DNA of 64,000 nt from Methanosuratincola petrocarbonis (GTDB lineage Archaea; Thermoproteota; Methanomethylicia; Methanomethylicales; Methanomethylicaceae): the NCBI GenBank assembly GCA_030522375.1, contig CP130488.1, positions 442-64,441 on the forward strand, given 5' to 3'. The position numbers and the translations under genes were made by a program. How positions within the stretch are numbered: the first letter of the stretch is position 1; the number at the start of each line of letters is the position of its first letter. Shown piece by piece: positions 26,293-43,125 of the stretch. The notes below the pieces were generated by a model that did not search any database, was not told where the DNA came from, and was given only the letters and a program-made list of their open reading frames with translations.

Positions 26293-27968
26293 GCGGCGCA
26301 CCCGCCCGTCCAGGCTTTGGTCGTGCGGTCGTCGGCGATGCCAGCGTCAGCGCTGAAAGTGTATGGGGAGAACAAGATAGGGTAAGGATTGAGCGGGAAG
26401 ATGATGGGAGTATCCGCCTGAAGATGGTCCGCCTACGCCTGGCTGGGAAGAAGCCCTTCGCGACGAGGAGGGGAACCTCCGCAGCCTGCTCCGGCGCCTT
26501 CCTGGCTGCGCTCGCCGGCATCTCGGGGGACCCTATCCTGGCTGCGGCTGGGGCTTCTGTTCTCGCAGGGTCAGCCGCCGACCTCGCGATCATGCTCTCC
26601 AGGCTTGCGAAGAAGGAAAAAGGAGCGCGTGCAGGGGTCGGAACCGTAGGGTCGGGGGGCAAAGCAGGATTATCGCTGACCTCCATCGCAGGGGAGTCGG
26701 TCGATTTCTTGGTCGATATCGAGGCCCCGGGATTGGGCGAGGTGGAGTCGTTCGCAGCCGATCCGCCGTTCGAGGTGCTCGGGCACTCCAGGGTTGGGGG
26801 CGGGTACAGGGTGGAGCTGCGGGCAAAGCCGGAGCTCTACGGCGACTACGCCCTGGGCGGGATTGAGGCTGTGACCAGGTCGAGGGCGGGATTCTTTGGG
26901 GCGAGGGCAGCCCTTGTGCCCGCCAGGGAGGTTGGAGAGGTTGGCGGTGGGCTGGCTGAGGGGACGGCGCAGCCCGAGAGGGGCGTAGACGTGGGCACAA
27001 TCGAGGCGCGAAGCGAGGGCGGAGCCGGAGCCGGAAAAACGAGCAGAAAAGAAATCGAGACGGCGGTTGATGAGGGGGAGCAGGGTTCAAACGGAAGCTC
27101 AAGCGTGAACGCACCGTGGATCGCGAGGCTGAGGGTCTACCCGAGGTTCTACCCGCTCATGATCGAGGCGCTGTCGCTGCTGGGCGAAGGTCCGTTGGAG
27201 GGAGATGTGGCTGCGGCGGGGAAGAGAAGGATCAGCAGGGGGGCGGAGTACGCTTGGTCGAGGGAGTACGAGCCCTGGGACTCGCCCCGGTTCATAGACT
27301 GGAAGGCCACCGCGAGGAGGGGGAGGCTCTCGGTGAAGGAGTTCTTCGAGGACCAAGGCGGGAGGGGGGCGGTCGTCTTCTTCGACGGTAGGGCGCCCGG
27401 GAGGATCTCGGCGGACGAGATGGCGAGGGACCTGCTCTCGGCGCTCCTGGGGCTGGCTGGCGCCGGGCAGAGGGTCACGCTCTTCCTGAGCCGCGGGGGG
27501 GCGTGCAGGAGGGTTGAGGGCGGTGCGGAGGAGGCTCTGAGGGCAGCCCTCGCGGAGGTCTTCGAGGTGGTGGTGGGCGCGGACCCGGAGGTATTCGCGC
27601 TTATCCCGCCCGCGGTGAGGTCGTCGCTGCTCGGGATGATAAGAAGGGGGAGAGGTGGCGCCGGCAGCGGACTCCCGGAGGACGAGGCTGGCAGGGAAGT
27701 AGTAGCAATGTCGAGGTCGGGCAGGGTCGGCGACTTTGTCTACATCGGGTGCCCGCTCTACGGGGCTTCAGGGGCGCTGGGGATGATCTCCGAGGTCGCC
27801 TCGCACGGCGCCCGGGTCAGGGTACTCCTGCCAACGAGGCCGTGGCTCGACGCCCCGACCCTGGAGAAGGCTTACGAGGTGCGGGTGAGCTGGTGGAAAA
27901 TTTCCAATTTTTTAGCACAATCTAATGTCGCAGAAACGGCGAATCCTATTTTTTCTCTGTTGACTTAA
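26289..27968 (+). CDS. DUF58-domain protein (vWA-like MoxR partner) with an extended N-terminal membrane-associated region.
   Basis: The start overlaps the MoxR stop. The DUF58 signature is AEYAWSREYEPWDSPRFIDWKATARRGRLSVKEFFED. Confidence 0.7.
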   Translation: MSGAPARPGFGRAVVGDASVSAESVWGEQDRVRIEREDDGSIRLKMVRLRLAGKKPFATRRGTSAACSGAFLAALAGISGDPILAAAGASVLAGSAADLAIMLSRLAKKEKGARAGVGTVGSGGKAGLSLTSIAGESVDFLVDIEAPGLGEVESFAADPPFEVLGHSRVGGGYRVELRAKPELYGDYALGGIEAVTRSRAGFFGARAALVPAREVGEVGGGLAEGTAQPERGVDVGTIEARSEGGAGAGKTSRKEIETAVDEGEQGSNGSSSVNAPWIARLRVYPRFYPLMIEALSLLGEGPLEGDVAAAGKRRISRGAEYAWSREYEPWDSPRFIDWKATARRGRLSVKEFFEDQGGRGAVVFFDGRAPGRISADEMARDLLSALLGLAGAGQRVTLFLSRGGACRRVEGGAEEALRAALAEVFEVVVGADPEVFALIPPAVRSSLLGMIRRGRGGAGSGLPEDEAGREVVAMSRSGRVGDFVYIGCPLYGASGALGMISEVASHGARVRVLLPTRPWLDAPTLEKAYEVRVSWWKISNFLAQSNVAETANPIFSLLT

Positions 27969-27981
27969 AGGAGTGAGAAAT

Positions 27982-28953
27982 ATGGACGTTGGCGTAATTG
28001 GCGTAGGTGTGATGGGCAAAAACCATCTAAGAATATACTCTGAAATGAGAGGAGTTGGCGAAGTCTATGCTTACGATGTTGACAAGAATTCCTTGATGAA
28101 GGCTTGCAATGTAACTAATGCAACTCCATGCGACAGCCTGAAATCATTATTGAGGAAAGTTGATGCAGTAAGCATATGCGTCCCTACAAAATATCATTTC
28201 GAAACCGCGAAGAAAGTCTTTGAGTCCAACATCAATTTTCTGCTCGAAAAGCCAGTCACTATGACATTAAAAGAAGGTCTTGAGTTAGTGAAAATGGCAG
28301 AAAGGCTTAGCCATGTTGTTGTAGGGGTAGGGCACATAGAACGCTTTAATCCCATAGTGTCTGAAATAAAGAGCCTTATCGATCAGCCAAAATTAATTGA
28401 GATAAAGCGCCATAATCCGGCATCATCAAGAATAACCGATTCGGACATAACGTCCGATTTGATGATCCATGATATCGACATCATTTGGAATTACTTATTC
28501 GAGAAAAAACAAGAAAAACAACTCCATTCCGTTGGAAACCAGGACGTCAGGAAAGTTGTCGCAGAGTTTGACGACTGCATAGTATCTCTCTCCGCTAGCC
28601 GAATCTCTTGCAAAAAAATCAGAAACATAGTAGTCGAGTGCGACAAATTTACTATTGAGGGCGACTTTATGACTCAGGAGGTCTACCTTTATAAGAAGCC
28701 TGGCAAGTACCAGCAGGATACTACAAAATACACGCAGGAAAACATCATTGAAAAAGTGCTAATCAACAAAGTCGAACCTCTGAAAGAAGAGCTTAAGGTA
28801 TTTTTAGATTCCGTAAGAAATAGCAAAGCGTTCCCTGTGACATTGGAACAAGGCGTATCAAACATTTATTTGGCGAAGAAAATAGAGGGCGGTTCATCGT
28901 TCGCAAATGAAGTTATTCCAAGCCAAAGCCTCATAACAAAGTGCTTTGACTAA
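27982..28953 (+). CDS. Gfo/Idh/MocA-family NAD-dependent oxidoreductase, a WbpB-like UDP-sugar 3-dehydrogenase candidate.
   Basis: The N-terminus MDVGVIGVGVMGKNHLRIYSEM is a Rossmann motif, followed by the EKP motif (FLLEKPV). SD AGGAGTGA lies 8-14 nt upstream of the ATG. This is the first gene of the low-GC block, which starts abruptly at ~27970. Confidence 0.75.
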   Translation: MDVGVIGVGVMGKNHLRIYSEMRGVGEVYAYDVDKNSLMKACNVTNATPCDSLKSLLRKVDAVSICVPTKYHFETAKKVFESNINFLLEKPVTMTLKEGLELVKMAERLSHVVVGVGHIERFNPIVSEIKSLIDQPKLIEIKRHNPASSRITDSDITSDLMIHDIDIIWNYLFEKKQEKQLHSVGNQDVRKVVAEFDDCIVSLSASRISCKKIRNIVVECDKFTIEGDFMTQEVYLYKKPGKYQQDTTKYTQENIIEKVLINKVEPLKEELKVFLDSVRNSKAFPVTLEQGVSNIYLAKKIEGGSSFANEVIPSQSLITKCFD

Positions 28954-28987
28954 TAATTCTATGAGTATACAGAATGGGGAAATTCTA

Positions 28988-30169
28988 ATGGACATTTCAG
29001 TAATAGGCTTAGGAAAAGCAGGGCTGCCTCTTGCTGCAATAATTGCAGACAGTGGCTTTAATGTAACTGGAATAGACCTTGACAGCAAAAAGTGCGAGCT
29101 GATAAACTCTGGTGAAAATCCAATACCCGAAGAACCGGGTCTAGAATCTCTTATAAAAAAATATGGCGGCAAGTCGCTTCGTGCATTTACAGATTACTGT
29201 TCGGCGTCAAATTGTAAGGCATACATAATAATCGTTCCACTTTTCATCAATGAGTTTCGGGAGCCTGACTTCAGGACTCTGAAGGGTGCCGTGAAGAGCG
29301 TAGGAAAGATGCTGAAGAAAGGAGACTTGGTGGTTGTGGAAACCACAGTGCCTCCTCTGACCACAGAGGAACTTGTACTCCGCTGGCTGGAGGAGGAGAG
29401 TGGCATGCATTTAGGCGAATTCTATCTTGCTCACTCGCCAGAAAGAATTATGAGCGGCAATTGCATATCCCGCCTCCGCGAATTTCCGAAGGTTATTGGT
29501 GGCGTTGACAAGAAAAGCGGAATTGTGGCTTTCGAAATGTATAGGAAGTTCATACCAAATCTACATTTAGTCTCCTCGGCTAGGGTGGCTGAGTTCGTAA
29601 AAAATATCGAAGGTTGCTATAGAGATGTAAACATCGCGCTTGCAAATGAACTCTACAAAATAGCCGAAGAGCTGGGCATTGAATTCTACGAATCGCGGGA
29701 GCATGCTAACCACGAGTATTGCCACTTGCTTTTGCCGTCAACGGGCGTAGGGGGGCACTGCATCCCAGTTTATCCTTGGTTTCTGATAAAAGAGATGGAG
29801 CGAAAAGGAAAGGACGAGTTTGCCGACTTGCTCCGGAAATCAAGGGAAATAAACGATAAAATGATTGAATATTGGGCAAATAAAATCGTCATTGCGTGCT
29901 TAAAGATCGATAAACCGTTGAACAAAATCACGATATGCATAAAGGGAATTACTTACCGAAAAGGGGTCAAGGAGCTTTTCCACAGCCGGAACCTGGCACT
30001 CGCAAAACTTTTGGCAGACAAGGGTTTCAGGATCTCCATCTATGACGAAATGTTCACCAGAGAAGAAATTGAAAAGCTTGGCCTTGCATGGGGCGACCCA
30101 GATTTAGCCGACTTGACATTCGATCCATTTGATTTGAAGATTAAACTGAATGCGCAAAAAAATGTATAA
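28988..30169 (+). CDS. UDP-sugar 6-dehydrogenase family protein, a WbpA/WecC-like UDP-N-acetylhexosamine dehydrogenase candidate.
   Basis: The N-terminus MDISVIGLGKAGLPLAAIIADSGFNVTGIDLD is NAD-binding. The catalytic Cys region is STGVGGHCIPVYPWF. An alternative ATG lies at 28961. Confidence 0.75.
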   Translation: MDISVIGLGKAGLPLAAIIADSGFNVTGIDLDSKKCELINSGENPIPEEPGLESLIKKYGGKSLRAFTDYCSASNCKAYIIIVPLFINEFREPDFRTLKGAVKSVGKMLKKGDLVVVETTVPPLTTEELVLRWLEEESGMHLGEFYLAHSPERIMSGNCISRLREFPKVIGGVDKKSGIVAFEMYRKFIPNLHLVSSARVAEFVKNIEGCYRDVNIALANELYKIAEELGIEFYESREHANHEYCHLLLPSTGVGGHCIPVYPWFLIKEMERKGKDEFADLLRKSREINDKMIEYWANKIVIACLKIDKPLNKITICIKGITYRKGVKELFHSRNLALAKLLADKGFRISIYDEMFTREEIEKLGLAWGDPDLADLTFDPFDLKIKLNAQKNV

Positions 30170-30914
30170 AGGTTTCAGAATCGGGGTTTCGGTACCGGCT
30201 TATAACGAAGAAAATTTGATCTTGAAAACTCTCCAAGGGATCCCCAGTTTTGTAGACAAAATCTATGTCGTAGATGATGCCTCAACGGACAGAACCTCCG
30301 AAAAAGTAAAAAACTACGCCGATAGCCGAGTCGTTTTATTGAAACACAGCAGGAATAAGGGGGTAGGCGGTGCCATCGTCACTGCATGGAAGATGGGGTT
30401 GAACGAGGTTGACATTCTTGCAGTGATGGCAGGTGATAACCAGATGGATCCTGGCGATCTTCCTTCTCTCTTGGACCCAATCGTGGAAGGGAAAGTGGAC
30501 TTCACAAAGGGTAACCGGTTTATGAAAAAATATGATTTGAAAATGAGTGCTTGGAGGCGGTTTGGAACAGCGGTTTTGACGGTTTTGAATAAAATAGCGA
30601 CAGGCTATTGGAATATCGGTGACCCCCAAAATGGGTATGTTGCCATTTCTTCCTCCGCACTAAAGAAGATTGATTTAGACGAACTTTACAAGGGATATGC
30701 TTTTGAGAATGACCTGTTGTTGAAGGCTAAGATAGCAGGACTGAGGGTTGTAAGCGTTCCCGTTACGATAAGATACAAAATAGGGGAACAATCGAAAATT
30801 AAATATTCCAAATTCATAGCAAAAATATCTTGGTATATGCTGAGGTCATTCTTATGGCGCATCTATGTCCAGCATTTCAGGAATCTTAAAACTCGGGAAT
30901 ACGATATCATTTAA
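30150..30914 (+). CDS. Family 2 glycosyltransferase (Dpm1-like, polyprenyl-phosphate sugar transferase type).
   Basis: The N-terminus IGVSVPAYNEENLILKTL is followed by VVDDASTDRT (a DxD-type motif) and DAD-like residues. The protein is 254 aa. Confidence 0.75.
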   Translation: MRKKMYKGFRIGVSVPAYNEENLILKTLQGIPSFVDKIYVVDDASTDRTSEKVKNYADSRVVLLKHSRNKGVGGAIVTAWKMGLNEVDILAVMAGDNQMDPGDLPSLLDPIVEGKVDFTKGNRFMKKYDLKMSAWRRFGTAVLTVLNKIATGYWNIGDPQNGYVAISSSALKKIDLDELYKGYAFENDLLLKAKIAGLRVVSVPVTIRYKIGEQSKIKYSKFIAKISWYMLRSFLWRIYVQHFRNLKTREYDII

Positions 30915-30939
30915 AAAATAAAAGCATAATGATCGACCA

Positions 30940-32043
30940 ATGAAACGAATAGCAATCTTTGTGAACACCCCAGCACAGCTGCATTTCTATCGAAACATAG
31001 CCAAGAGGCTTGAGCAAAAAGGAAACCAAGTCAATATGCTGTTCAGGGATTACGGAGAGACTCTGCGATTAGCTCAAGAATTTGGTTTTAATCCACTAAT
31101 CTTCTCAAAACAGCGACCCACTTCGCTACAAAAAATGATTTTTTTCCCAGTCGACATTATGCGTTCGGTTAGGATTTTTCGCGGGCAAAATCCAGATGTC
31201 GTAACAGGATTCGGCATCGACAGCGTATATGCTTCCGCATTTGCTGGATCTAAAAGCATTGTCTTCAGTGATTCCGAGCCTAGATCGCATCGTCTACTGC
31301 ATTTTCAATACGATCTTTTCAAACCCTTAACGGATGTGATTATTACGCCTTCTTCATTCTTGGATGACCTGGGGAGCAAACATATCCGAGTGAACAGCTA
31401 TAAGGAACTCGCCTACTTGCACCCAAATTGCTTTCAACCAAGCAACGACATATTCGATCTCTTGGGCATTTCAAGAAACGAAGACTTCGCTATCCTTAGA
31501 TTCAATGCTTTCGATGCTGTGCACGATCTACAAATCTCAGGCTTCAATTCAGAGCAAAAAGTGAAGCTCGTTGAAACTCTTGACCGTCACGCCCATGTCT
31601 TCGTCTCTGCCGAAGGGAGCGTTCCAAAGCGAATCGAAAAGAACGTCCTCAAAATCCCCAAGAGAAGAATACATGACCTCCTATACTACGCCAAGCTTTT
31701 CGTTACCGATACGCAAACTATGGCTACAGAGGCAGCCATTCTTGGCACGCCCACAATCCGAAGCAACAATTTTGTAGACGAAAAAAGGGAAATGGGTAAC
31801 TTCCTTGAGCTAGAAAAAAAATACGGGCTTCTGTTTAGTATTTGCGATAGAAATAGAGCGATTTCCTTGGCAGAGGAATTGATAAAGTATGATGGTCTGA
31901 AAAAGGAATGGACAAGAAGGCGCGAGGTTTTATTGAAGGATAAAATTGACATTTCGTCGTTCATGACTTGGTTTATCGAAAACTATCCCGAAAGCTGCAA
32001 GGAAATCAAATCCGATTCGAAAATCCAGTTCAAATTCAGGTAA
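30940..32043 (+). CDS. DUF354-family protein, a predicted glycosyltransferase/epimerase-fold enzyme.
   Basis: The N-terminus MKRIAIFVNTPAQLHFYRNIAKRLEQKGNQVNMLFRDYGETLRLAQEFGF matches the DUF354 N-terminal pattern. The 367-aa length also fits. Confidence 0.55.
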   Translation: MKRIAIFVNTPAQLHFYRNIAKRLEQKGNQVNMLFRDYGETLRLAQEFGFNPLIFSKQRPTSLQKMIFFPVDIMRSVRIFRGQNPDVVTGFGIDSVYASAFAGSKSIVFSDSEPRSHRLLHFQYDLFKPLTDVIITPSSFLDDLGSKHIRVNSYKELAYLHPNCFQPSNDIFDLLGISRNEDFAILRFNAFDAVHDLQISGFNSEQKVKLVETLDRHAHVFVSAEGSVPKRIEKNVLKIPKRRIHDLLYYAKLFVTDTQTMATEAAILGTPTIRSNNFVDEKREMGNFLELEKKYGLLFSICDRNRAISLAEELIKYDGLKKEWTRRREVLLKDKIDISSFMTWFIENYPESCKEIKSDSKIQFKFR

Positions 32044-32044
32044 A

Positions 32045-33124
32045 ATGCGGGTTGCGACTGTGGTAGGGGCACGCCCTCAATTCATCAAGATGGCACCCTT
32101 GTCAAGGGAGCTCCGAAAATATTTCGAGGAGATCGTAATACACACAGGTCAGCACTACGATTACGAGATGGACCGCATATTCTTCGAACAGCTAAACATA
32201 CCTCCCCCAGATTACAACCTGGGCGTTGGGTCAGGCTTTCATGGCTACCAAACAGGTGAGATGCTCAAACGAATAGAGGATGTGTTGATAAAGGAAAGCC
32301 CAGATCTGGTCATTGTCTATGGCGACACCAACTCGACGCTGGCAGGTGCCCTTGCGGCCGCGAAGCTTCGAATAAGGGTAGCGCATGTAGAGGCTGGCTT
32401 GAGGTGTTTTGATAGAACGGTTCCTGAGGAAGTAAATAGGGTTCTTACAGATCATATTAGTGATTTGCTATTCGTTCCTACTGAGCGTGCCGTAAAAAAC
32501 CTCTACAACGAGGGAATAAAAAACGGTGTTTATCTGACAGGCGACGTCATGCTTGACGCTTTATTGCATAACATAACAATCGCTGAAAAAGAATCTAAAA
32601 TAATTCAAGAACTTGGCGTTGAGGCGAAATCTTATTTGCTTGTAACAGTTCATAGAGCAGAAAATACTGATAATAGAGCAAGACTTGAAAACATAATTGA
32701 ATGCTTGGTAAAGTGCAAAAGAAAAACAATCTTCCCGATCCATCCGAGGACTAAAGCATTTTTAGAAAAGTATAGCCTGCTTGATAAACTAAAAAACGCG
32801 GATCACATAATCTTGACGAAACCCCTAAGCTATTTTGACATGCTTGTTCTGGAAAAAAACGCAAGACAAATCATAACAGATTCAGGCGGCGTCCAAAAGG
32901 AGGCTTACTCTTTTAAAACGCCATGCATAACTCTTAGAAAAGTGACTGAGTGGCCAGAGACAGTTGAAGACGGGTTGAACATCTTAGTGGGTGATGATTA
33001 CGACCTCTTATTGGATATGATTTGGAAATTTGAGCCAGTCGGCGGGACTTACAGCTTCAGGTTTGGACATGGGGACGCAAGCTCAAGGGTTGTGCAAATT
33101 ATGAAAAATATTTTATGCGCTTGA
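32045..33124 (+). CDS. wecB: UDP-N-acetylglucosamine 2-epimerase, second copy and island paralog of 5450-6523.
   Basis: Motifs MRVATVVGARPQFIKMAPL...HTGQHYDYEMD...NLGVGSGFHG...TNSTLAGALAAAKL are present. SD AGGT lies upstream. Confidence 0.85.
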   Translation: MRVATVVGARPQFIKMAPLSRELRKYFEEIVIHTGQHYDYEMDRIFFEQLNIPPPDYNLGVGSGFHGYQTGEMLKRIEDVLIKESPDLVIVYGDTNSTLAGALAAAKLRIRVAHVEAGLRCFDRTVPEEVNRVLTDHISDLLFVPTERAVKNLYNEGIKNGVYLTGDVMLDALLHNITIAEKESKIIQELGVEAKSYLLVTVHRAENTDNRARLENIIECLVKCKRKTIFPIHPRTKAFLEKYSLLDKLKNADHIILTKPLSYFDMLVLEKNARQIITDSGGVQKEAYSFKTPCITLRKVTEWPETVEDGLNILVGDDYDLLLDMIWKFEPVGGTYSFRFGHGDASSRVVQIMKNILCA

Positions 33125-33305
33125 CTAAGCGTAATTTTATGCGCGCGCAATTGTATGCGATTTGCCAAGATGAAAAGGTTAAAGCTATTGAGTCTCAAAA
33201 TACTTCAGTACTCTATACTCTTTGTGTATAGATTGGTTTTCAAATAAAAATGTTTGATATAAAACTAAACTATGATTATAGTAATAAATAGTAAATAATT
33301 GGAAT

Positions 33306-34511
33306 ATGGGGTGTGTTTATAAAAGCAAAATTATTAAGAAATCTATTTATAATTTATATAATTATGTAAAAAAAGAAAATCATATTGGATTTGATCCTTA
33401 TGATGGCTTAAGCGGAAAAATGCAACGATATTATAATATAAAATATTTAAATATAATTTTATTACAATTTAATTTATATTCATTTGTAAATTTACGAAAA
33501 ATACTTGGCATAAAAAAGGGTTGTGCAAACAAGGCTTTAGCCATTTTTTCAAGATCCTACTTTTTACTATATCTAATTACAAAAGAAAAGGAATTTCTTG
33601 ATAATGCAATTAAATTGTTCGATATTTTAAAGGAAAGAAATCTTTTAAATAATAAAGATAATTATACGTGCTCAAGTCATTATTTTACATACCTTGCACC
33701 AGGCCATTATTTGACCACCTCTGTACCTGACATTATCTGTACCACGGAGTTTGTTAAATCTTCAGTTTTGGCATATGAAGTATTGGGAAAGTCTCAATAC
33801 CTTGAATATGCAGAAAAGGGAATTAATTACTTATTTTACAATTTATTGACTTCAAAAACTGGATATGGTTGTTACTTTAAGTACACTCCATATGAGGAAA
33901 CTAAAATTGTACTGAATGCGTCAGCTGTGGCGCTAGATGCTTTTTCTTATTTTTACAAGCATAGCCAAAATAAGAAATTTTTAGAGCTTGGGAAAAAAGT
34001 TGCAAGAACTCTTCTGCATTACCAGCGTGAAGATGGTGCATGGCCTTATTCTATTTACTTTAAAAATAATTTGCAATATTGGCAGGTCGACTTCCATCAA
34101 GGCTACATTATTGATGGGTTGATACATTTTTTTGATTGCGTGGCAGAATCAGATCTAACCTCAAAAATGAAGACAGCACTAGGAAAAGGAATTGATTTTT
34201 ACTGTCAAAAGCAATACCGAGGCAATGGGACTTTCTATTATAGGTATCCTATTAAGTACCCAATTGACATTCATAATCAAGCGCAAGGCATAATTACATT
34301 TGCCAATCTCTTTGACTTTACTGGAGATTATAAATACTTAGAACTCGCTGAAAGAGTTGCATTATATACTATTGAAAAAATGCAAGATGATGAAGGATAC
34401 TTCTACACGCACAAATATCCTTTATTTACGAATAAAATACCTTACATGCGTTGGGGACAGGCGTGGATGATGTTGGCTTTAACAAATCTTCTAATGGCAC
34501 TAAAAAAATGA
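33306..34511 (+). CDS. Hypothetical protein (401 aa) in the glycan island, possibly a glycan-modifying enzyme. It lies in the lowest-GC part of the island (~27 % GC).
   Basis: The ORF is long, uninterrupted and soluble. No motif could be assigned with confidence. Its context suggests a glycan-related function. Confidence 0.4.
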   Translation: MGCVYKSKIIKKSIYNLYNYVKKENHIGFDPYDGLSGKMQRYYNIKYLNIILLQFNLYSFVNLRKILGIKKGCANKALAIFSRSYFLLYLITKEKEFLDNAIKLFDILKERNLLNNKDNYTCSSHYFTYLAPGHYLTTSVPDIICTTEFVKSSVLAYEVLGKSQYLEYAEKGINYLFYNLLTSKTGYGCYFKYTPYEETKIVLNASAVALDAFSYFYKHSQNKKFLELGKKVARTLLHYQREDGAWPYSIYFKNNLQYWQVDFHQGYIIDGLIHFFDCVAESDLTSKMKTALGKGIDFYCQKQYRGNGTFYYRYPIKYPIDIHNQAQGIITFANLFDFTGDYKYLELAERVALYTIEKMQDDEGYFYTHKYPLFTNKIPYMRWGQAWMMLALTNLLMALKK

Positions 34512-35593
34512 AAGTCTTAATGATCGCACCAATTGGAAAAGCAGGTGGTGTTTCGACTCATTCTCAAGAATTGGTGAGAGAACTTCGGGGTTTAGGGATA
34601 ATGGTTGAAGTCTATAATGTAACGACTTCTATAAAACCAAGATTTATTGCTAATTTTATTAAATTTTATAAAAGAAGTTTCGGGGTCTTCATCAATATTT
34701 TCATTCGTAGGGGTTTTGATATAGTTCATGTACAAGCATCCGGTCCTATGGGTGGTTTCTTGCCTGCAATAAGTGCAGCAATTGTTAGAAAAATCGTAAA
34801 TTTTCCTTTAGTAGTGACTTTTCATTATTCTCGAACATCTGAATTTATTATAAAAAATAAATTTTTTAAATTTGTAATGGAATCATCAAAATTTTTTATT
34901 GTTGTATCTAAAAATCAGAAAAATATCATAATTAATGAAATAAATTATATAGAAAAAGTTAAAGTTATATCAAATGGTTTCAATCCAAAAAATCTTTTCC
35001 CAATTGACTGCATTTTTGCAAGGAAATATTTGAGTCTACCCTATAATAAAAAAGTAATTTTTCATGTTAGTAATCTTCTTCCTGTAAAAGGTCAAAAATA
35101 TTTAATTATAGGAATGAAGAAGATTTTAGAAAAACGCAAAGATGTGCTGCTTTTTATCGGTGGGAAAGGCCCATTAAAACACGAGCTTCAAAAACAAATT
35201 ATCGCACTGAAACTTGAAGATAACATTAAGCTTTTGGGTTTCATTCCAGATGATAAACTGGCACTATGGATGAATGCTGCCGATCTGTTTGTTTTACCTA
35301 GCCTGAGTGAGGGCAACCCCACAGTCATGTTCGAAAGCCTCGGTGTCGGCCTCCCCTTCGTGGGCACAAGGGTCGGCGGAGTGCCTGAGATAATAACCTC
35401 GGACGAATACGGCCTCCTGGCTGAGCCAGGCAACCCCGACGACCTGGCGGAGAAGATATTGGTCGCTCTTGAGAAGGAATGGGACCGTGAGAAGATTCGT
35501 GATTACGCCAGGCAGTTCACTTGGGAAAACATAGCCAAGCAGCTGATTAAAGTGTACGAGGAAGTCCTGAGCAAAAGTCCTTCTGGTGAGTAA
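34508..35593 (+). CDS. Family 4 (GT-B) glycosyltransferase. The last ~100 codons switch to host-like high GC.
   Basis: The ATG overlaps the previous stop (ATGA). A C-terminal EX7E-like region reads SLSEGNPTVMFESLGVGLPFVGTRVGGVPEII. A GC jump occurs near 35290. Confidence 0.75.
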   Translation: MKVLMIAPIGKAGGVSTHSQELVRELRGLGIMVEVYNVTTSIKPRFIANFIKFYKRSFGVFINIFIRRGFDIVHVQASGPMGGFLPAISAAIVRKIVNFPLVVTFHYSRTSEFIIKNKFFKFVMESSKFFIVVSKNQKNIIINEINYIEKVKVISNGFNPKNLFPIDCIFARKYLSLPYNKKVIFHVSNLLPVKGQKYLIIGMKKILEKRKDVLLFIGGKGPLKHELQKQIIALKLEDNIKLLGFIPDDKLALWMNAADLFVLPSLSEGNPTVMFESLGVGLPFVGTRVGGVPEIITSDEYGLLAEPGNPDDLAEKILVALEKEWDREKIRDYARQFTWENIAKQLIKVYEEVLSKSPSGE

Positions 35594-36290
35594 GATGCTC
35601 TTTATATCGAAAAAAGCAAAGGTGTCAGGGTCAATCGAGGGGGAAGCAGTGGTATTGGGCCCCTCCGAGGTGGGCGGTGGATCCGTGATAGGGAACAACG
35701 TGGTCATCGGCTATCCCATCCGTAGAAAGATCCTCCAGGTGCCCAATGCATCGTTTCTGGAGTACGACGCCGCAAGTTCTGGCGCAAAGGTAGGTCCCCG
35801 CTGCATAGTCAGATCCAACTCCACGATATACGAAGGCTCTTCGCTTGAGGAGGCGGTTGAGCTCGGGCACGGAGTCCTTGTGAGGGAAAAATGCGAGATC
35901 GGCGCAGGAGCTAGGATAGGGACTTTTGCTGTAGTCGACGGGAGCGTCTGCATTGGGAGCAGGTGCAGCATCCAGACTGGAGTCTACTTGCCGCCCGGTA
36001 CTGTGGTTGGCTCCGATGTGTTCATGGGTCCTTACGTGACCGTGACCAACGACCGATACCCTCCTTCGCCGAAGACCTCCGGAGTTGTGATCGAGAGCGG
36101 CGCCGTGATAGGGAGCCGTGCCGTCCTGATCGCCGGGATCCGTGTTGGCTCCGGAGCTGTTGTAGGGGCGGGCGCTGTGGTGACGAGGGATGTGCCCCCG
36201 GGCGACGTAGTTCTGGGCGTACCCGCGAGGAGGGTAATGGGAAGGGACGAATATGACAGGAAGCAAAAGGACTTCGTTTCCTTAAAGTAG
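35586..36290 (+). CDS. Left-handed beta-helix (hexapeptide-repeat) acyltransferase, a WbpD/PglD-like sugar N-acetyltransferase candidate.
   Basis: Repeated [LIV]G-x4 hexapeptides occur (VIGNNVVIG, RIGTFAVVDGSVCIGSRCSI, VIGSRAVLIAGIRVGSGAVVGAGAVV). The gene is high GC. Confidence 0.75.
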   Translation: MSKMLFISKKAKVSGSIEGEAVVLGPSEVGGGSVIGNNVVIGYPIRRKILQVPNASFLEYDAASSGAKVGPRCIVRSNSTIYEGSSLEEAVELGHGVLVREKCEIGAGARIGTFAVVDGSVCIGSRCSIQTGVYLPPGTVVGSDVFMGPYVTVTNDRYPPSPKTSGVVIESGAVIGSRAVLIAGIRVGSGAVVGAGAVVTRDVPPGDVVLGVPARRVMGRDEYDRKQKDFVSLK

Positions 36291-36305
36291 CAGGGTGGAA
36301 TTCGT

Positions 36306-37406
36306 ATGATACCGATAAACAAGCCGATTCTGGGGAAGGAAGAGATCGAGGCTGTCGCGAAGGTGATCGAGAGCGGCGCCCTCACCAACCCCGCCCCCGA
36401 GGGGGGGTCAGTCTGCAGGGCGTTCGAGCAGGAGCTTGCCTCTTACTGCAATGCGAAGCACGCTGTCGCATGCAACTCCGGTACCGCCGCGCTCCAGATG
36501 GCGCTTATGGCTGCTGGAGTCGGTCCAGGGGACGAGGTGATCGTCCCGTCCTTCACATTCGTGGCGACCGCAAGCTCCGTGCTCCTGGTTGGCGCCAGGC
36601 CGGTCTTTGTCGACATCGATCCGGATACATACAATATGGACCCAGAGCAATTCAGGAGGGCGATCACCCCGAGGACGAAGGCAGTGGTCCCCGTTGACCT
36701 GTACGGGCTGCCCGCTGCCATGGACGAGATAAAAGAGATCGCCCGCCAAAGTGGCATAATTGTCATAGAGGATGCCTGCCAGGCGCAAGGGGCTTCCTAC
36801 AAGGGCAAGATGGCGGGGACGCTTGGGGACATGGGGTGCTTCAGCTTCTACCCCGGGAAGGTAATGACTACGGGGGAGGGCGGGGCTGTGATCACGGACG
36901 ACGATGAGCTGGCAGAGCGCCTCCGCAGGATTAGGACCCACGGGCAGGTCAAGGGTTACGACTCCGTGATGCTCGGGGGAAACTTCAGGATGACCGAGAT
37001 GGCGGCTGCGATAGGCAGAGTCCAGCTAAAGCGCCTCCCGGGCTTCCTCTCTGTTAGGGAAAAGAACGCGGCGCAGCTTCTGGAGCTGCTTGATGGATCG
37101 AGCCTAAAACTGCCTGAGGTGCCTGGTAGATACAAGCACAACTGGTATTTGTTCACCGTAAAATGCAAAACAAATAAAGAAAGAGAATCCCTAAAATCCT
37201 CGCTGCTCGAGGCGGGTTTTGGAGTTGCCGTCTACTATCCAATTCCGTTGCACAAAATTCCTTTATTTAATGATTATTCGGATGATTTTATCAAAACTGC
37301 TGAACGCTGTTCTGAAGATGTTCTTTCGTTGCCAGTTAATCCTGCAGTTAGTTATGATGATATTATTAATATGGTTAATATAGTAAAATTTAAAGTAATA
37401 TTGTAA
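36306..37406 (+). CDS. DegT/DnrJ/EryC1/StrS-family PLP-dependent sugar aminotransferase (WbpE-like). The 3' ~250 nt revert to AT-rich composition.
   Basis: Family motifs are MIPINKPILGKEEIEAVAKVIESGAL and FSFYPGKVMTTGEGGAV. A PLP lysine context is present. SD GGGTGGA lies upstream. Confidence 0.8.
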   Translation: MIPINKPILGKEEIEAVAKVIESGALTNPAPEGGSVCRAFEQELASYCNAKHAVACNSGTAALQMALMAAGVGPGDEVIVPSFTFVATASSVLLVGARPVFVDIDPDTYNMDPEQFRRAITPRTKAVVPVDLYGLPAAMDEIKEIARQSGIIVIEDACQAQGASYKGKMAGTLGDMGCFSFYPGKVMTTGEGGAVITDDDELAERLRRIRTHGQVKGYDSVMLGGNFRMTEMAAAIGRVQLKRLPGFLSVREKNAAQLLELLDGSSLKLPEVPGRYKHNWYLFTVKCKTNKERESLKSSLLEAGFGVAVYYPIPLHKIPLFNDYSDDFIKTAERCSEDVLSLPVNPAVSYDDIINMVNIVKFKVIL

Positions 37407-37428
37407 TAAAAATTTTTAATTAATAAAT

Positions 37429-39163
37429 ATGAAAAATAGAATTTTATACTTATACATATTAATTAGTTGTACATTTATATTCTTCATTTATGAATCAACT
37501 TTTTTACCACAAAAGTTACCCACTCATGTCTTCTATTTAATTGCCATAATACTTTCATTATCTATTGTTTTATTTGCATTCTTTTCAAAAAATATAATTG
37601 GTTATGTGCTTACAATTTCTTTTATTTCTTTTTTAATAAAAGAAGCATTTTTATCTGTGGTCCCTCCATCAATTATTTCTTTATATTTAGATAATTATGT
37701 TATCTACCAAGTTGCAAATGGTATCGCTACTTATTCTCGTATCCCTCCTATAGATTATTACTCTAATGCTGCAATTTTTGTTGCAAAGCAACCTGTGGCC
37801 CCCGTATTCTCTGTTATTTTTTCAGGGATAACTGGCGTTCCATTAGAATTAAGTCTAAGACATTTAGGCTGCGTTATTGGAGGATTGATTATTCCTATTG
37901 TGATTTGTCTCCTTTATAACCCGCTGGAAAAACAATTTGGTTATCAGTCTTTCAAATTTAGTCACTTGTCTCTATTATTTTCTCCTTGGATAGTTTTCTT
38001 TTTGATATGGGGTCACTATTCAATTTATAGTATCACATATTTTGCAATTATGAGTTTTATAATATTAAGGTATCTCATTATAGAAAGAAGAATTGGTGTA
38101 GGATGCATAATTTTATGGTCAATAACCTCCATTGCGATTTCATTTGCGCATGTTTATTTATCTGTTATTGCATTAGCAATTTTTGGGTTGACGCTGTTTT
38201 GCTTTATTATATTATTGTATGGTGCGAATTACACGAGAAGATTTTTTAACCTTTTATGTATTTATTCGATCAACCTAATCATATATGTTTTGTTTTTTTT
38301 TTGAGGAAACTATAACTTCAATACTGTTTAGTTTAGCATTACTTTTTGAAGCAATAGTTATCGGAGACCCGTCTCGGGGAATCAACTTCTACTTTGCGGG
38401 TGGAGGAATTGAGGTGCCGTTTTATGTTAGGTTTTTGAGATGGGCTGGGGCAATTTCTTGGGCTTTATTGACAGCATTTTCTTTTATTTTGCTCTTAAGA
38501 AAATACCGAAATTCGAGAAAATTTTTAGCATACATAATGTATCTTAGTGTAGGCACGATAGGGTTTATTACTGCTCTACCCTATATTTTGGATCCAAAAT
38601 ATGGAACAGATCTGTTTAATCGATCTCTTTATTTCTTTGGTCTAATGTGTGCAGCCCCGTTTGTAGGTTTTATTTCCAAACATTTTTCAGGAAAATTGAA
38701 GAAAGTAATATATTTCATATTTTTAACTCTGATTATAAATTTTGGAATCACAATGACTCCTGTTGATTTCCAAAGCTGGAATTATCCCATAAGAGGTGGA
38801 GAAGACATTCGTCTTTATCCATCTGAGTGGGCGGCAGCAGGCACATTTACATTAAATTATGCTGATAGCTTGAGTTCGGCCTGCGGTCTTAGGCAAGGTT
38901 TGTCAACAATTGGTTATTTTAGTAGGATAAATTACTATGAAATACAACCGTCTGCCTCAAATCAACTTGTTTTTATTCCACCAGATGAATGGGATGAACT
39001 AAAAAATTATTGGACGGATTGTTGCTTTTTAAGAAAAAGTATTACAAAATACGAGGAAGTGCCGGGATATGTGGTTCAAAATTCTACATTTGATGAGCTG
39101 ATTAGTTCTGTCAAAATTGTTTATACTTGCACTGATGTGTTTATGATTTATTATAGAAATTAA
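37429..39163 (+). CDS. Polytopic membrane protein with ~9-11 TM segments and a C-terminal soluble domain, GT-C-like glycosyltransferase or polymerase candidate. It is split into ORFs 37429-38304 and 38285-39163 by a +1 frameshift in a T10 run (38293-38302).
   Basis: Removing one T fuses the frames to give ...YVLFFFEETITSILFSL.... Both halves are very AT-rich and hydrophobic. A GT-C-like architecture is inferred from the TM domain plus periplasmic-type C-terminal domain. Confidence 0.5.
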
Positions 39164-39164
39164 T

Positions 39165-40277
39165 ATGAAGATTCTTATTATTGGTAATAACATTTCTAAG
39201 CCTTACTTGGGTCCTTCAGCAGTTTTAAACAACACATTAAAAGGTTTTTATAAAATAGATAAAAAACTTGAAAAATATGGTATAAAACTAACTTTTATGT
39301 CAATAAATGAAAATGTTGACAAACTGCTTAGTGAAAATATTAAAATAGTGGGCGTGAAGAGATATCGCTATCCTTTTGTTACTGTCACATATGAAATTCA
39401 GTCTTTATTGTTTTCTCCAAAAGAAAAATTTAATGCCGTTCACTCGCATATATTGTATGAGATTTTTCCTTGGATAATTAAGTTTCCAACATTTTTTACA
39501 CTTCATGGAATTTTTTGGAAAGAAAAGAAATATATGAATAATAAATTTTTATCCGAATATTCAAATTTAGTAAACACTCTAAGACTTACTTTTTACTCTA
39601 GTCATATTGCTGCACTTGTAGCAGTTTCTCCATATGTTATTGAAGAGCTCGAAGCGATGGGATTTGATATCAAAAAGGCGGTAGTGATAGAAAATCCTGT
39701 TTCGGACGAGTTCTTCGAAATAGAGAAAGAACAAGACGATATGATCCTATATCCTGCAGCCCTAAATGCAAGAAAGAACCAACTTGGCTTCCTTAAGGCT
39801 TTCGCTTCAGTTAAGAATGAGCTTAAAGGGTACAAGTTAGTTTTTACAGGCTCCGGGGATTCCGGTTATTATGCAACGCTCAGGCATTTCGCGGAAAAGC
39901 ATGGCTTGAATGCAGCGTTCCTCGGTAAAGTCCCCTATAAAGAAATGGTGCGCCTTTACTCCAGAGCTTCCTTCGTGGCCTTAACTTCATTCCAGGAGAC
40001 GCTCCCAATGGCGGTTCTTGAATCCCTGGCATCCGGCACTCCCGTTCTCGCCTCGCGGGTCGGAGGCTTGCCCTACGTCATCGAAGATAACATTAACGGT
40101 CTTCTAGTGAATCCGTTCAACCATCTAGAAATAGCGGAGAAAATTATCGCTTTGACAGACAAGAGTCTTCGCGAAAAATTGGCTGCAAATGCTAAAAGAA
40201 CTGCCGAAAAATACAGAAGTGATGTGGTCGCAAAAAAGCTTCTTGAATTGTATCTAACTAGAGTAAATATGTATTAA
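39165..40277 (+). CDS. Family 4 glycosyltransferase. Its C-terminal 213 aa are identical to the next gene.
   Basis: The GT-B C-terminal domain reads ...FTGSGDSGYYATLRHFAEKHGLNAAFLGKVPY...ETLPMAVLESLASGTPVLASRVGGLPYVIEDNINGLLV. The N-terminal domain is diverged from that of 40280-41377. Confidence 0.75.
   Translation: MKILIIGNNISKPYLGPSAVLNNTLKGFYKIDKKLEKYGIKLTFMSINENVDKLLSENIKIVGVKRYRYPFVTVTYEIQSLLFSPKEKFNAVHSHILYEIFPWIIKFPTFFTLHGIFWKEKKYMNNKFLSEYSNLVNTLRLTFYSSHIAALVAVSPYVIEELEAMGFDIKKAVVIENPVSDEFFEIEKEQDDMILYPAALNARKNQLGFLKAFASVKNELKGYKLVFTGSGDSGYYATLRHFAEKHGLNAAFLGKVPYKEMVRLYSRASFVALTSFQETLPMAVLESLASGTPVLASRVGGLPYVIEDNINGLLVNPFNHLEIAEKIIALTDKSLREKLAANAKRTAEKYRSDVVAKKLLELYLTRVNMY
39615..40253 (+). 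repeat. Copy 1 of a perfect ~639-bp direct repeat (copy 2 at 40724-41362).
   Basis: Nucleotide-for-nucleotide identity was checked by eye across the whole segment. The antisense track ORFs 39602-39835 and 40705-40944 are near-identical over the shared segment. Confidence 0.9.
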
Positions 40278-40279
40278 AT

Positions 40280-41377
40280 ATGACGATTCTTATAATAGGG
40301 TCAAAAATTTCTAACCCTTATCTTGGTCCTTCAACAGTCCTTAGCAATACTTTGAAGGGATTTTTAAAAATCCAGAAAGAACTTGAGAAATATGGTGTTA
40401 AAATAACTTTTCTATCACTTAATGACAATATTAATAAAAAATTTTCAAAATATATCCGAGTAATCAGCTATAGAACTTACCCTCCAATTACCTTTACAGG
40501 GGAACTCCAAGCAGTGGTTAACAAATCTAAAGAGACGTTCGATATAGTACACGCTCACGGGATTTACGACCTTTTTCCATACATCTTTTCTAATACGCCA
40601 ACCATTTTTACCCTTCATGGAATCTTTTGGAAAGAGATCTTTTTCAAAAGCAAACTGTACTCAAAACTATACCTAAAGCTTGGGGAGTTGCGACTGAGGT
40701 TTTATTACCCAAAGATTACAAGGTTTGTAGCAGTTTCTCCATATGTTATTGAAGAGCTCGAAGCGATGGGATTTGATATCAAAAAGGCGGTAGTGATAGA
40801 AAATCCTGTTTCGGACGAGTTCTTCGAAATAGAGAAAGAACAAGACGATATGATCCTATATCCTGCAGCCCTAAATGCAAGAAAGAACCAACTTGGCTTC
40901 CTTAAGGCTTTCGCTTCAGTTAAGAATGAGCTTAAAGGGTACAAGTTAGTTTTTACAGGCTCCGGGGATTCCGGTTATTATGCAACGCTCAGGCATTTCG
41001 CGGAAAAGCATGGCTTGAATGCAGCGTTCCTCGGTAAAGTCCCCTATAAAGAAATGGTGCGCCTTTACTCCAGAGCTTCCTTCGTGGCCTTAACTTCATT
41101 CCAGGAGACGCTCCCAATGGCGGTTCTTGAATCCCTGGCATCCGGCACTCCCGTTCTCGCCTCGCGGGTCGGAGGCTTGCCCTACGTCATCGAAGATAAC
41201 ATTAACGGTCTTCTAGTGAATCCGTTCAACCATCTAGAAATAGCGGAGAAAATTATCGCTTTGACAGACAAGAGTCTTCGCGAAAAATTGGCTGCAAATG
41301 CTAAAAGAACTGCCGAAAAATACAGAAGTGATGTGGTCGCAAAAAAGCTTCTTGAATTGTATCTTTCCTGCGGTTGA
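40280..41377 (+). CDS. Family 4 glycosyltransferase, tandem paralog with an identical C-terminal half.
   Basis: The same C-terminal GT-B domain is present. The N-terminus MTILIIGSKISNPYLGPSTVLSNTLKGF is ~65-70 % identical to MKILIIGNNISKPYLGPSAVLNNTLKGF. Confidence 0.75.
   Translation: MTILIIGSKISNPYLGPSTVLSNTLKGFLKIQKELEKYGVKITFLSLNDNINKKFSKYIRVISYRTYPPITFTGELQAVVNKSKETFDIVHAHGIYDLFPYIFSNTPTIFTLHGIFWKEIFFKSKLYSKLYLKLGELRLRFYYPKITRFVAVSPYVIEELEAMGFDIKKAVVIENPVSDEFFEIEKEQDDMILYPAALNARKNQLGFLKAFASVKNELKGYKLVFTGSGDSGYYATLRHFAEKHGLNAAFLGKVPYKEMVRLYSRASFVALTSFQETLPMAVLESLASGTPVLASRVGGLPYVIEDNINGLLVNPFNHLEIAEKIIALTDKSLREKLAANAKRTAEKYRSDVVAKKLLELYLSCG
40724..41362 (+). repeat. Copy 2 of the perfect ~639-bp direct repeat.
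   Basis: Identical to 39615-40253; the offset is 1109 bp. Confidence 0.9.
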
Positions 41378-41893
41378 ATTTAGCCACTTCCGTTCCACTA
41401 GTCTATTTTCCTTTAAGTTAAAAATCCGAATTACATCAATATAGAATGCCTAGTTTTGGTGTGATTTGACATTTAATGTGACATAACATCTTCCTTGGAG
41501 AAAAGTTTTCAGCCGCAAAGACTAAGAAATCGTTCCCCCTCCTTTGAATCTGGAATTCCTTTTTATGTAAAGCTTGGATGAACCACTCAGTTTAGGCATT
41601 GGCTTTACTTGGGTATTAGATGCGCCCCCTTCGTCTAGCGAACTATTTTTCGGGATCGAAAGAACAGCTAGGAAAATCAATCAAAACGAAAGATAAGGTG
41701 CCAATGTATGAAATCATCTGCAGTTCGTGGATGCGGTGTTGAGAACTTGGCAACTATCTCGAAACGCACATTTCCACTCGGAACGAAATCAGGGGCATGG
41801 ACGGATCAAATCACATCTGTAGGATCGAATTTACTTTAGAGGCATCGGTTATAAAGCCCGGCCCACAAAACCTTCTGCAATCAGGTGCCCGCG

Positions 41894-42646: not shown

Positions 42647-42661
42647 AAATACCGATCGAAC

Positions 42662-42913: not shown

Positions 42914-43125
42914 GGACGCCTCGAGGAGAGCAGTTACTGCTGGACTCTTGTGCCTAACAACGGTCTATGCCTGACCAAAAAAGGCTCATAAATCCATGTA
43001 ATACAAACCTCCCAAAGAATCAGCCAACTTCAGTGCTCAATCCTCCCTTGCATTTTCAATACCGCGCAAGGCGCCAACTTTCATATATACTCTAAACCAC
43101 TACTTTGATCCGAGGAGTGCCCCAA

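Follow-up and report, generated by a model that had tools for sequence, protein, structure and literature searches.

A probable serotype-like surface-glycan locus with exchangeable cassettes in Methanosuratincola petrocarbonis

Gene content and composition of the locus

The sequence analysed (the window) comprises 64,000 nucleotides of Methanosuratincola petrocarbonis contig CP130488.1, and all coordinates refer to it unless stated otherwise. Directly after the MoxR and DUF58 genes, it carries a glycan locus of 13 open reading frames (ORFs; O1 to O13), all co-directional (+), whose Pfam matches comprise Gfo/Idh/MocA, UDPG_MGDP_dh, glycosyltransferase family 2 (GT2), DUF354, Epimerase_2, glycosyltransferase family 4 (GT4; three genes), Hexapep and DegT (Table 1). 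The enzyme and transferase families named in an earlier note on this DNA, which had been made from the sequence alone, were present among them. A near-identical, collinear locus was found in CP186953.1, a complete chromosome of 1.52 Mb that belongs to Candidatus Methanosuratincola verstraetei LCB70; this agrees with the archaeal host named in the earlier note. The segment is interpreted here as a likely hypervariable, serotype-like surface-glycan locus at a fixed site, serving a rare diacetamido sugar acid and exchanging its cassettes among congeners.

In 1-kb bins, the guanine-plus-cytosine content (GC) was 0.63-0.68 at 19-28 kb, 0.40 from 28,001 and again ~0.59 at 42 kb. In 200-bp bins over 27,600-28,199 it fell from 0.665 via 0.525 to 0.405, placing the step across 27,800-28,000; the stop codon of the DUF58 gene lies at 27,968, and the last ~70 nt of this gene are already AT-rich. 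Mean GC in 500-bp bins was 0.587 (standard deviation 0.059) outside the island and 0.403 inside, and it recovered toward ~0.6 by ~41.8 kb at the right edge. The collapse at the DUF58 stop codon described in the earlier note was thereby reproduced (~65% to ~40%). Its claim that GC stays low for 13.4 kb failed at block C (GC 0.54), and its floor of 27% was undercut by the lowest bins of the region (0.18-0.20).

Blocks A, B, D and E lay at tetranucleotide distances of 0.58-0.92 from the flanks, compared with a null distribution of 200 random 2.2-kb flank chunks (mean 0.255, maximum 0.46). For block C the distance was 0.23, its 200-bp bins reached GC values of 0.56-0.645 across 35.6-37.0 kb, and the GC at third codon positions (GC3) of its genes was ~0.65; compositionally, this block is native, like the flanks.

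No integrase or recombinase Pfam domains were detected in the 13 ORFs, and no tRNA or other RNA genes were found within the window (Rfam, ARAGORN), so that there is no tRNA-linked integration site. Direct repeats of at least 25 nt were limited to an internal GT4 duplication and a 29-nt family, T-rich and of low identity, within the GT-C gene described below; none of this length flanked the island.

Table 1. Features of the glycan locus, its edges and the second WecB gene of the window
Feature	Position	Strand	Block or context	Description
DUF58 gene, 3' part	26400..27968	+	left arm of exchanged segment	native GC, ~65%
Block A	27973-33124			GC 0.43
O1	27973..28953	+	A	Gfo/Idh/MocA oxidoreductase, PF01408; likely true start ATG at 27984
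O2	28946..30169	+	A	NDP-sugar 6-dehydrogenase (WecC/WbpA family)
O3	30150..30914	+	A	GT2, dolichyl-phosphate-sugar synthase-like (DPMS/AglJ/PpgS-like), PF00535
O4	30940..32043	+	A	DUF354 protein with GT-B-like features, putative glycosyltransferase
O5	32045..33124	+	A	WecB-family 2-epimerase with UDP-GlcNAc3NAcA-type signature (WbpI/WlbD-like)
AT-rich spacer	33125..33305		A/B junction	GC ~0.20 (0.20 at 33200-33399); possibly an internal archaeal promoter
Block B	33200-35269			GC 0.30
O6	33306..34511	+	B	401-aa protein, probable (alpha/alpha)6-barrel
O7	34451..35593	+	B/C	GT4 glycosyltransferase, PF00534 + PF13439, chimeric
Block C	35270-37463			GC 0.54 (hexapeptide acetyltransferase + DegT)
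O8	35586..36290	+	C	left-handed beta-helix N-acetyltransferase, QdtC/WlbB class, Hexapep
O9	36306..37406	+	C	DegT/DnrJ/EryC1 PLP aminotransferase, WbpE-like by role, PF01041 (6.8e-121)
Block D	37464-39615			GC 0.31
O10+O11	37429..39163	+	D	one GT-C-fold membrane glycosyltransferase
O12	39165..40277	+		GT4 (Agl16/PglH-like), PF00534, first of tandem pair; best NCBIfam model Agl16 (92 bits)
Block E	39616-41377			GC 0.42
O13	40280..41377	+		GT4, second of tandem pair
Right edge	41378..42405			GC climbing to ~0.6; LCB70-collinear tract stops at 42405
Second WecB gene	5450-6523		outside the island	native

Sugar-nucleotide enzymes

Judging from family matches, epimerase residues and gene linkage, O1, O2, O5, O8 and O9 very probably form a pathway to a sugar nucleotide of the 2,3-diacetamido-2,3-dideoxy type, with epimerisation at C2 and oxidation at C6. 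The coherent route to such a sugar (acid) proposed in the earlier note gained support from the residues of O5, the QdtC/WlbB match of O8 and the operon linkage in other archaea. Its count of two WecB genes in the window was correct, and its assignment of O2 to the WbpA-like enzymes stood at the level of the family, the nearest relatives being UDP-ManNAc dehydrogenases. The WbpB-like nature of O1 was not borne out. The biochemical part of that reading appears largely right, with the epimerase now supported at residue level.

O1 is predicted to be a UDP-HexNAc 3-dehydrogenase of the GnnA/MMP0352 type, outside the WbpB/WlbA subfamily. Its best NCBIfam model was NF040723 (archaeal UDP-GlcNAc 3-dehydrogenase; 1.4e-51, 175.8 bits, below the equivalog cut-off of 450), on which a homologue from a Methanothrix operon scored about the same (168 bits). 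The best PDB match was 7bvj (3.9e-25), named by its depositor 'Oxidoreductase, NAD-binding', which we take to be GnnA; WbpB and WlbA entries were absent from the best 60 PDB matches at E<=1. In a scan of species-representative genomes, the LCB70 copy (99%) was the sole match of that kind, and the closest homologues outside the genus came from Methanothrix and ANME-type archaea (50-58%). Homologues of O1 were compared in 79 loci, from Methanothrix, ANME-1, Methanoperedens, Syntrophoarchaeum and others: 31 had the arrangement DegT-Gfo-LbH-NDPDH (LbH, left-handed beta-helix acetyltransferase; NDPDH, NDP-sugar dehydrogenase), and another 15 had it extended by WecB. O2 passed the cut-off of the family model TIGR03026 (305 bits; cut-off 190); its best equivalog was NF040825 (archaeal UDP-ManNAc dehydrogenase; 235.1 bits, below the cut-off of 750), and its PDB matches included 4r16, a UDP-ManNAcA dehydrogenase (2.1e-56), and Cap5O (3e-48). 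It is thus predicted at family level to be a UDP-HexNAc 6-dehydrogenase, with UDP-ManNAc dehydrogenases as nearest characterised relatives.

In the UDP-GlcNAc3NAcA 2-epimerase of T. thermophilus, the Arg that binds the 3'-OH in UDP-GlcNAc enzymes is replaced by Trp307, His/Gln by Tyr96 and Met/Leu by Ala18 (PMC10622841). Residues W303, Y92 and Q12 of O5 correspond to Trp307, Tyr96 and Gln14 of the solved enzyme, such that two of the three reported substitutions are present. The Trp in place of the 3'-OH-binding Arg, together with the Tyr at the position of Tyr96, argues for a substrate that is already 3-N-acetylated. O5 had its best PDB match in 8sxv, the solved UDP-GlcNAc3NAcA 2-epimerase (390 bits), ahead of 4neq, a UDP-GlcNAc epimerase (372 bits). 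For the native WecB at 5450-6523 this order was reversed (4neq 440 bits, 8sxv 306 bits), with Arg, Glu and Glu at the positions of W303, Y92 and Q12 and Met at that of Ala18. The Trp was found in 18/18 WecB homologues from Gfo-containing operons.

The best PDB matches of O8 were the 3-amino-sugar N-acetyltransferases QdtC (1.4e-32) and WlbB (3mqg, 7e-18); its GC3 was 0.66, and its protein identity was 99% to M. subterraneus and 60% to Methanosuratus. O9 matched 7b0d (280 bits), perosamine synthetase (263), WbpE (256) and QdtB (250). The adjacency of O8 and O9, as well as the linkage of LbH and DegT genes to Gfo in relatives, favours action at C3. Since the homologues of O9 track taxonomy (88% in M. 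subterraneus, 68% in Methanosuratus, 64% in Methanomethylicus and 53-57% in Bathyarchaeia), the LbH-DegT pair of block C is regarded as lineage-native.

In the proposed pathway, O1 would oxidise C3 of UDP-GlcNAc or its uronic acid, O9 would transaminate the 3-keto group, O8 would N-acetylate the new amine, O5 would epimerise C2 and O2 would oxidise C6, yielding UDP-ManNAc3NAcA or a close relative. These substrates, their order and the product are proposed from the observed enzyme families, epimerase residues and operon context. As O1 and O2 resemble UDP-GlcNAc and UDP-ManNAc enzymes and O5 retains Met16, the sequence is compatible with C6 oxidation as either the first or the last step.

Glycosyltransferases and remaining ORFs

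O3 has a GT-A catalytic domain that appears homologous, at the level of the family, to dolichyl-phosphate-mannose synthase (DPMS): its sole PDB match was 5mlz, the Dol-P-Man synthase of P. furiosus (8e-16, residues 6-236), and its best NCBIfam model was AglJ (TIGR04182; 5.6e-21, 75 bits, below the cut-off of 325), followed by PpgS. It is 10 residues shorter than the LCB70 copy, owing to a T3/T4 difference at 30910, in the run 30907-30910; the same T4 run is present in a related locus, L002. A DUF354 gene such as O4 occurs in every allele of the locus. O4 matched PF04007 (1.2e-12) and, weakly, Glyco_transf_4 and GT28_N; the literature searched for DUF354 yielded nothing beyond papers on unrelated DUF354x families.

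O6 is probably an (alpha/alpha)6-barrel and a candidate epimerase-, hydrolase- or lyase-like enzyme acting on glycans. Its Pfam matches (GH88, C5-epim_C, GH76 and AGE) were weak, and a PDB profile search gave only weak matches to GH76 and cellobiose 2-epimerase (E ~1e-3). Orthologues with 45-49% identity are encoded at the same locus in two relatives (L084 and L086).

O7 is chimeric in composition: its N-terminal part belongs to low-GC block B and its last ~108 codons to native-GC block C, joined at ~35270, with GC rising along the gene from 0.18-0.33 to 0.49-0.53. The tandem pair O12 and O13 carries an exact 640-bp repeat covering the two C-terminal domains (39616-40255 and 40725-41364), and the N-terminal domains are 50% identical. 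In LCB70 this repeat recurs with identical boundaries and free of internal mismatches, and the same 8 differences separate both copies from those of the window. The repeat is a signature of gene conversion, unless repeat polishing made it. In L084 and L086, only one copy of this GT4 gene is present.

Membrane GT-C protein

The earlier note had listed GT-C-like membrane proteins. The fold was confirmed by structure prediction, whereas the two proteins proved to be one frameshift-split gene, divided in the window into the ORFs 37429-38304 (291 aa) and 38285-39163 (292 aa) by one extra T in the T-run 38293-38302 (T10 instead of T9). An intact protein of 577 aa is encoded in LCB70 and in L093, a near-conspecific relative. 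Comparison of the window with L093 revealed no frame-breaking indels in ~7 kb of close-matching flank; the T10 run is one of two 1-nt indels in 8.4 kb of shared island, the other falling between genes. A sequencing error is not clearly favoured as the origin of the frameshift; the homopolymer differences in O3 and the GT-C gene may reflect phase-variation-like slippage or sequencing errors.

The family of this protein is very rare, with 4 members found by a word-indexed search of 5.8 billion proteins and 20 members (E<=1e-3) by a full profile search of 1.84 billion representatives. No Pfam model matched the protein at E<=1; among remote family members, one matches DUF1616 and one, weakly, PMT_2. 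The AlphaFold model based on a 22-sequence alignment had a predicted local distance difference test (pLDDT) score of 89.5, while a model from a 4-sequence alignment (pLDDT 41.9) was set aside. In the former, a GT-C membrane fold is clear: all strong fold matches are GT-C enzymes of the oligosaccharyltransferase (OST), ALG, ArnT or PMT type, and the predicted structure is closest to AglB/STT3. A Wzy-type polymerase was considered and set aside in view of these matches. D88 in a YLDxY motif, a candidate for the conserved acidic residue of the first external loop of GT-C enzymes, is invariant in 4 close homologues and consensus in the 22-sequence alignment. The WWD[YW]G motif of the OST C-terminal domain was not seen on inspection of the translation, and no STT3 profile match was obtained; the protein is assigned to the GT-C enzymes outside the OST family, its likeness to AglB/STT3 being structural.

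Pairs of Dol-P-sugar synthases and GT-C-type enzymes are known as AglD/AglS, ArnC/ArnT and GtrB/GtrC. The matches obtained here are to DPMS and PMT, and the presence of O3 and O10+O11 in one cluster suggests a pair of this kind, in which a Dol-P-sugar synthase would supply an external GT-C transferase. A bolder reading, in which the GT-C protein is a locus-specific, AglB-independent oligosaccharyltransferase or terminal glycan transferase whose expression is switched by T9/T10 slippage, is a long shot. It is entertained because the structure is nearest to AglB/STT3, because M. subterraneus encodes at the same position a 573-aa membrane protein without detectable sequence similarity and because of the T9/T10 tract. 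If true, it would mean that in archaea a 'private' glycan-attachment enzyme travels with each glycan type, and that a methanogen has a phase-variable surface.

The same site in relatives

All loci checked (L084, L086, L088, L092 and L093) showed the same low-GC trough, and low-GC glycan genes occupy the site even in distant relatives whose DUF58 proteins are 34-54% identical. Their gene contents differ. On metagenome contig L084, MoxR-DUF58 is followed by a GT2 gene, a gene for a 680-aa protein without Pfam match, a GT4 fragment, NDPDH, DUF354, a homologue of O6 (the alpha/alpha protein), GT4, GT-C and GT4. In two metagenome-assembled genomes of Thermoproteota (L086/L087), the order after MoxR-DUF58 is YdjM, GT2, DUF354, alpha/alpha protein, an ADH-Gfo fusion, two GT4 genes, GT-C, GT4, NDPDH, WecB and a Wzx-like flippase. 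Candidatus M. subterraneus (L088, a 693-kb contig) carries block A after DUF58, followed by an asparagine-synthase-like gene, GT4, LbH-DegT, the unrelated 573-aa membrane protein and a reverse GT4 gene. Metagenome contig L092 shares the split architecture, with a nucleotide identity of ~70%; its DUF58 flank lies beyond the contig. In L093, MoxR-DUF58 is followed by GT2, Gfo (59%), NDPDH (65%), DUF354 and WecB, and then by blocks B, C and D in the form seen in the window. In three of the alleles (L002 5388-6941, L088 6537-8090 and L092 5287-6927; coordinates of the respective loci), an asparagine-synthase-like amidotransferase stands right after WecB in place of the alpha/alpha protein, which would fit amidation of the uronic-acid carboxyl group in that glycan type.

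Homologues of the genes in blocks B, D and E were found only in this archaeal lineage, and the same holds for the module alpha/alpha protein-GT4-GT-C-GT4, whose proteins are 44-62% identical between the window and L084, with the first GT4 protein somewhat lower in L086. GT2 and a homologous GT-C gene co-occur in the alleles of L084, L086/L087 and L093. In a neighbour-joining tree of Gfo proteins, the alleles of the window and M. subterraneus group with that of L092 at 98% bootstrap. The clustering of the Gfo alleles of this lineage supports its residence in the lineage, as far as the tree can indicate.

Allele exchange and breakpoints

The window was aligned to the related loci at the nucleotide level. 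Identity to LCB70 was 81-87% at 22.5-26 kb and 96.6-100% over 26.5-42.4 kb, a tract that includes 1.5 kb of native-GC DUF58 sequence (0.966-0.994 from 26.5 kb). Species of Methanosuratincola share ~87% average nucleotide identity (PMC12244365); as the flanks are only 81-87% identical, the species in the window differs from that of LCB70. The near-identity reaches into the neighbouring gene, so that selection on protein sequence cannot explain it, and recent recombinational transfer among congeners is the simplest reading of the alignments. Inside the DegT gene (36500-37000), identity to LCB70 dips to 95.4% in an island otherwise 98-100% identical, which suggests a small secondary recombination patch.

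Against M. subterraneus, most scattered core matches were ~79-80% identical, compared with 99.06% over 26,715-33,292 and 92.9% in block C; blocks B, D and E had no nucleotide match there. Against L093, the flank was 93.9% identical, the left end of the locus was divergent (Gfo 59%), the DUF58 protein was only 72% identical and identity was 97.2% from 31270 onward.

The alignment ends define four internal breakpoints. One lies at ~31270 inside O4, where the L093 alignment starts. At ~33290, the alignments to L002 (which begins at 27864 and crosses the DUF58 stop) and L088 end at 33,289 and 33,292, respectively. Within O7, at ~35270, they resume at 35,270 (L088) and 35,267 (L092). At ~37463, the L088 alignment ends at 37,463 and that of the more divergent L092 at 37,267. 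The breakpoints coincide with GC steps.

Interpretation and alternative explanations

Conserved flanking genes, alternative gene contents and internal breakpoints, as in hypervariable glycan loci, were all observed, and the features of a classical integrative genomic island (integrase, tRNA target, flanking repeats) were not. The earlier note had read the region as a horizontally acquired island. In both GC and tetranucleotides, blocks A, B, D and E stand far from the flanks, which would agree with recent import from an unrelated low-GC donor, as would the place of the nearest O1 homologues outside the genus in Methanothrix and ANME-type archaea. Such an import is nevertheless unlikely: every relative found has low-GC glycan genes at this site, homologues of the genes in blocks B, D and E are confined to this lineage, and the LbH-DegT pair is native to it. 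Moreover, the split architecture persists in L092 at ~70% identity, the Gfo alleles cluster together and the closest donors found reached only 58-68% protein identity. The horizontal component is instead the exchange of alleles among Methanosuratincola species, and the region is, as the comparison of alleles indicates, a glycan locus that is resident in the lineage, swaps cassettes and passes its alleles from one of these species to another. Neither outcome that would have undone the earlier reading, namely best matches in unrelated pathways or a uniformly low-GC genome, occurred.

A chimeric contig joining two organisms could give abrupt GC steps near gene boundaries, and the related sequences are mostly metagenome assemblies. 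That the locus is such an assembly or binning artefact is extremely improbable, given that the DUF58-Gfo junction recurs in the complete LCB70 chromosome and the 693-kb M. subterraneus contig and that L002 matches across the DUF58 stop into block A (from 27864). In L093, the same MoxR-DUF58 flank leads, independently, into a low-GC cluster with a different left allele, and in all of them native-GC block C is embedded in low-GC DNA. With respect to the product, the genes could serve two sugars, with WecB and WecC making UDP-ManNAcA and Gfo, DegT and LbH a neutral 3-acetamido sugar, e.g. UDP-GlcNAc3NAc, or with DegT and LbH acting at C4. The resemblance of O2 to UDP-ManNAc dehydrogenases and of O1 to enzymes for UDP-GlcNAc (not its uronic acid), C4 aminotransferases (perosamine synthetase) among the top matches of O9, the retained Met16 of O5 and the fact that LbH-DegT and the other three genes belong to different cassettes speak for this division. 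It is nonetheless doubtful, since the Trp and Tyr of O5 argue for a substrate already 3-N-acetylated, a canonical UDP-GlcNAc WecB is already encoded at 5450-6523, and the five genes form one operon in other archaea, whose WecB always has the Trp.

The reading as a hypervariable locus for a diacetamido sugar acid is considered likely, with the following points weighing against it. The equivalog cut-offs for O1 and O2 were not reached, M16 of O5 stands at the position of Ala18, so that the state of C6 in the substrate is ambiguous, and the specificity of O9 for C3 or C4 is not readable from its best matches. We know of no enzyme activities or glycan structures for any Methanosuratincola. The deeper node of the Gfo tree, adding L093 and one further contig, had a bootstrap value of only 65%, and the perfect 640-bp repeat could partly be an assembly or polishing effect. 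Genes for a flippase, an oligosaccharyltransferase or a phosphosugar transferase were not found inside the island in the window, and the frameshifted GT-C gene may be inactive in this copy.

As a working model, the locus would be a mosaic of cassettes, anchored by A (27973-33124) and C (35270-37463) and variable in the low-GC cassettes B, D and E. Homologous recombination would swap cassettes at the GC-step breakpoints, whole alleles would pass between congeneric species, and gene conversion would keep the donor domain of the tandem GT4 pair identical. The soluble GT-B enzymes (DUF354 and the three GT4s) would assemble an oligosaccharide on a lipid carrier at the cytoplasmic face, O3 would charge dolichyl phosphate with a sugar, and the GT-C enzyme, identified by its predicted fold, would take the lipid-linked donor outside the membrane, its partner and acceptor being proposed from gene context.

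Comparison with known systems

The Wbp/Wlb pathway, which leads to UDP-2,3-diacetamido-2,3-dideoxy-D-mannuronic acid, has a counterpart in Methanococcus maripaludis (MMP0350-0353/0357). The Methanococcus-type NCBIfam equivalogs were the best-matching models for O1 and O2, below their cut-offs. The same five enzyme classes are found here as in P. aeruginosa (WbpA/B/E/D/I), B. pertussis (WlbA-D) and T. thermophilus HB27 (PMC10622841). O5 shares the Trp307/Tyr96 substitutions of the T. thermophilus epimerase, with Met in place of its Ala18. The 3-dehydrogenase here resembles GnnA/MMP0352 and not WbpB/WlbA, the 6-dehydrogenase is nearest to UDP-ManNAc enzymes, and the genes are distributed over two cassettes that lie 6.4 kb apart and differ in composition and history.

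Bacterial O-antigen and capsule loci are comparable variable loci, and the GC of O-antigen loci also deviates from that of the genome. Serotype-like glycosylation clusters and cell-wall islands have been described in haloarchaea (Haloferax, PMC5867893; Haloquadratum walsbyi, PMC4535781). Shared with them are the fixed site, at which conserved flanks enclose alternative gene sets, the variation by homologous recombination both within close lineages and from one to another, and chimeric glycosyltransferase genes. In contrast to the haloarchaeal loci, conserved internal cassettes (A and C) serve as anchors here, and an allele is 98-100% identical across species with flanks of 81-87%. Literature searches returned no earlier report of such a locus in Methanomethylicia (Thermoproteota).

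Neighbouring sequences in the window

A short ORF at 41885-42172 is an Mrr_cat-like restriction-endonuclease remnant and corresponds to a 92-aa Mrr_cat fragment annotated in LCB70. It is followed by ~4.5 kb of native GC (42405-46885) with a long rmlA gene (43105-44184; TIGR01208, 444 bits), an RmlD-like gene (44214-45152) and an RmlB-like gene (45653-46672). This segment is missing at this position in LCB70 and M. subterraneus, where the alignments jump from 42405 to ~46885-46928. Downstream of a GT2 gene (47093-48130), two large, overlapping ORFs (48192-49337 and 49075-50136) had no Pfam match at E<=1 and may derive from a membrane or surface gene that is either novel or frameshifted. Composition departs from the surroundings a second time, outside the island, at 50001-50500 (GC 0.33); next to it, 50457-51135 reaches 94.7% identity to M. 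subterraneus (core ~79-80%), and 50001-51135 may be another exchanged tract beside a surface-protein gene. The latter (51742-56877) encodes a surface protein of 1711 aa that combines NosD/beta-helix with numerous Ig-like domains and has 60 N-X-S/T sequons, compared with 25.8 expected from composition. The earlier note had proposed the sequon-rich surface proteins of the window as targets of the glycan, and this protein would be a candidate acceptor. In L093, a DUF1616 protein (968-1774 of that locus, ~20.2-21.0 kb of the window) is encoded a few genes upstream of MoxR; given the remote GT-C member that matches DUF1616, this family and the rare GT-C family may be distantly related.

Biological significance

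Methanosuratincola is among the first cultured methanogens of Thermoproteota, and a literature search found no report describing its cell surface. The locus predicts, in a form open to testing, that the surface carries ManNAc3NAcA or a near relative, and the specificity residues of the epimerase back this prediction. The very rare GT-C family and the chimeric GT4 system are candidates for biochemistry. A known theme is extended to a new archaeal lineage, with current views not overturned. These thermophiles with small genomes appear to swap surface-glycan alleles across species boundaries, as would be expected if viruses or partners drive selection on the surface.

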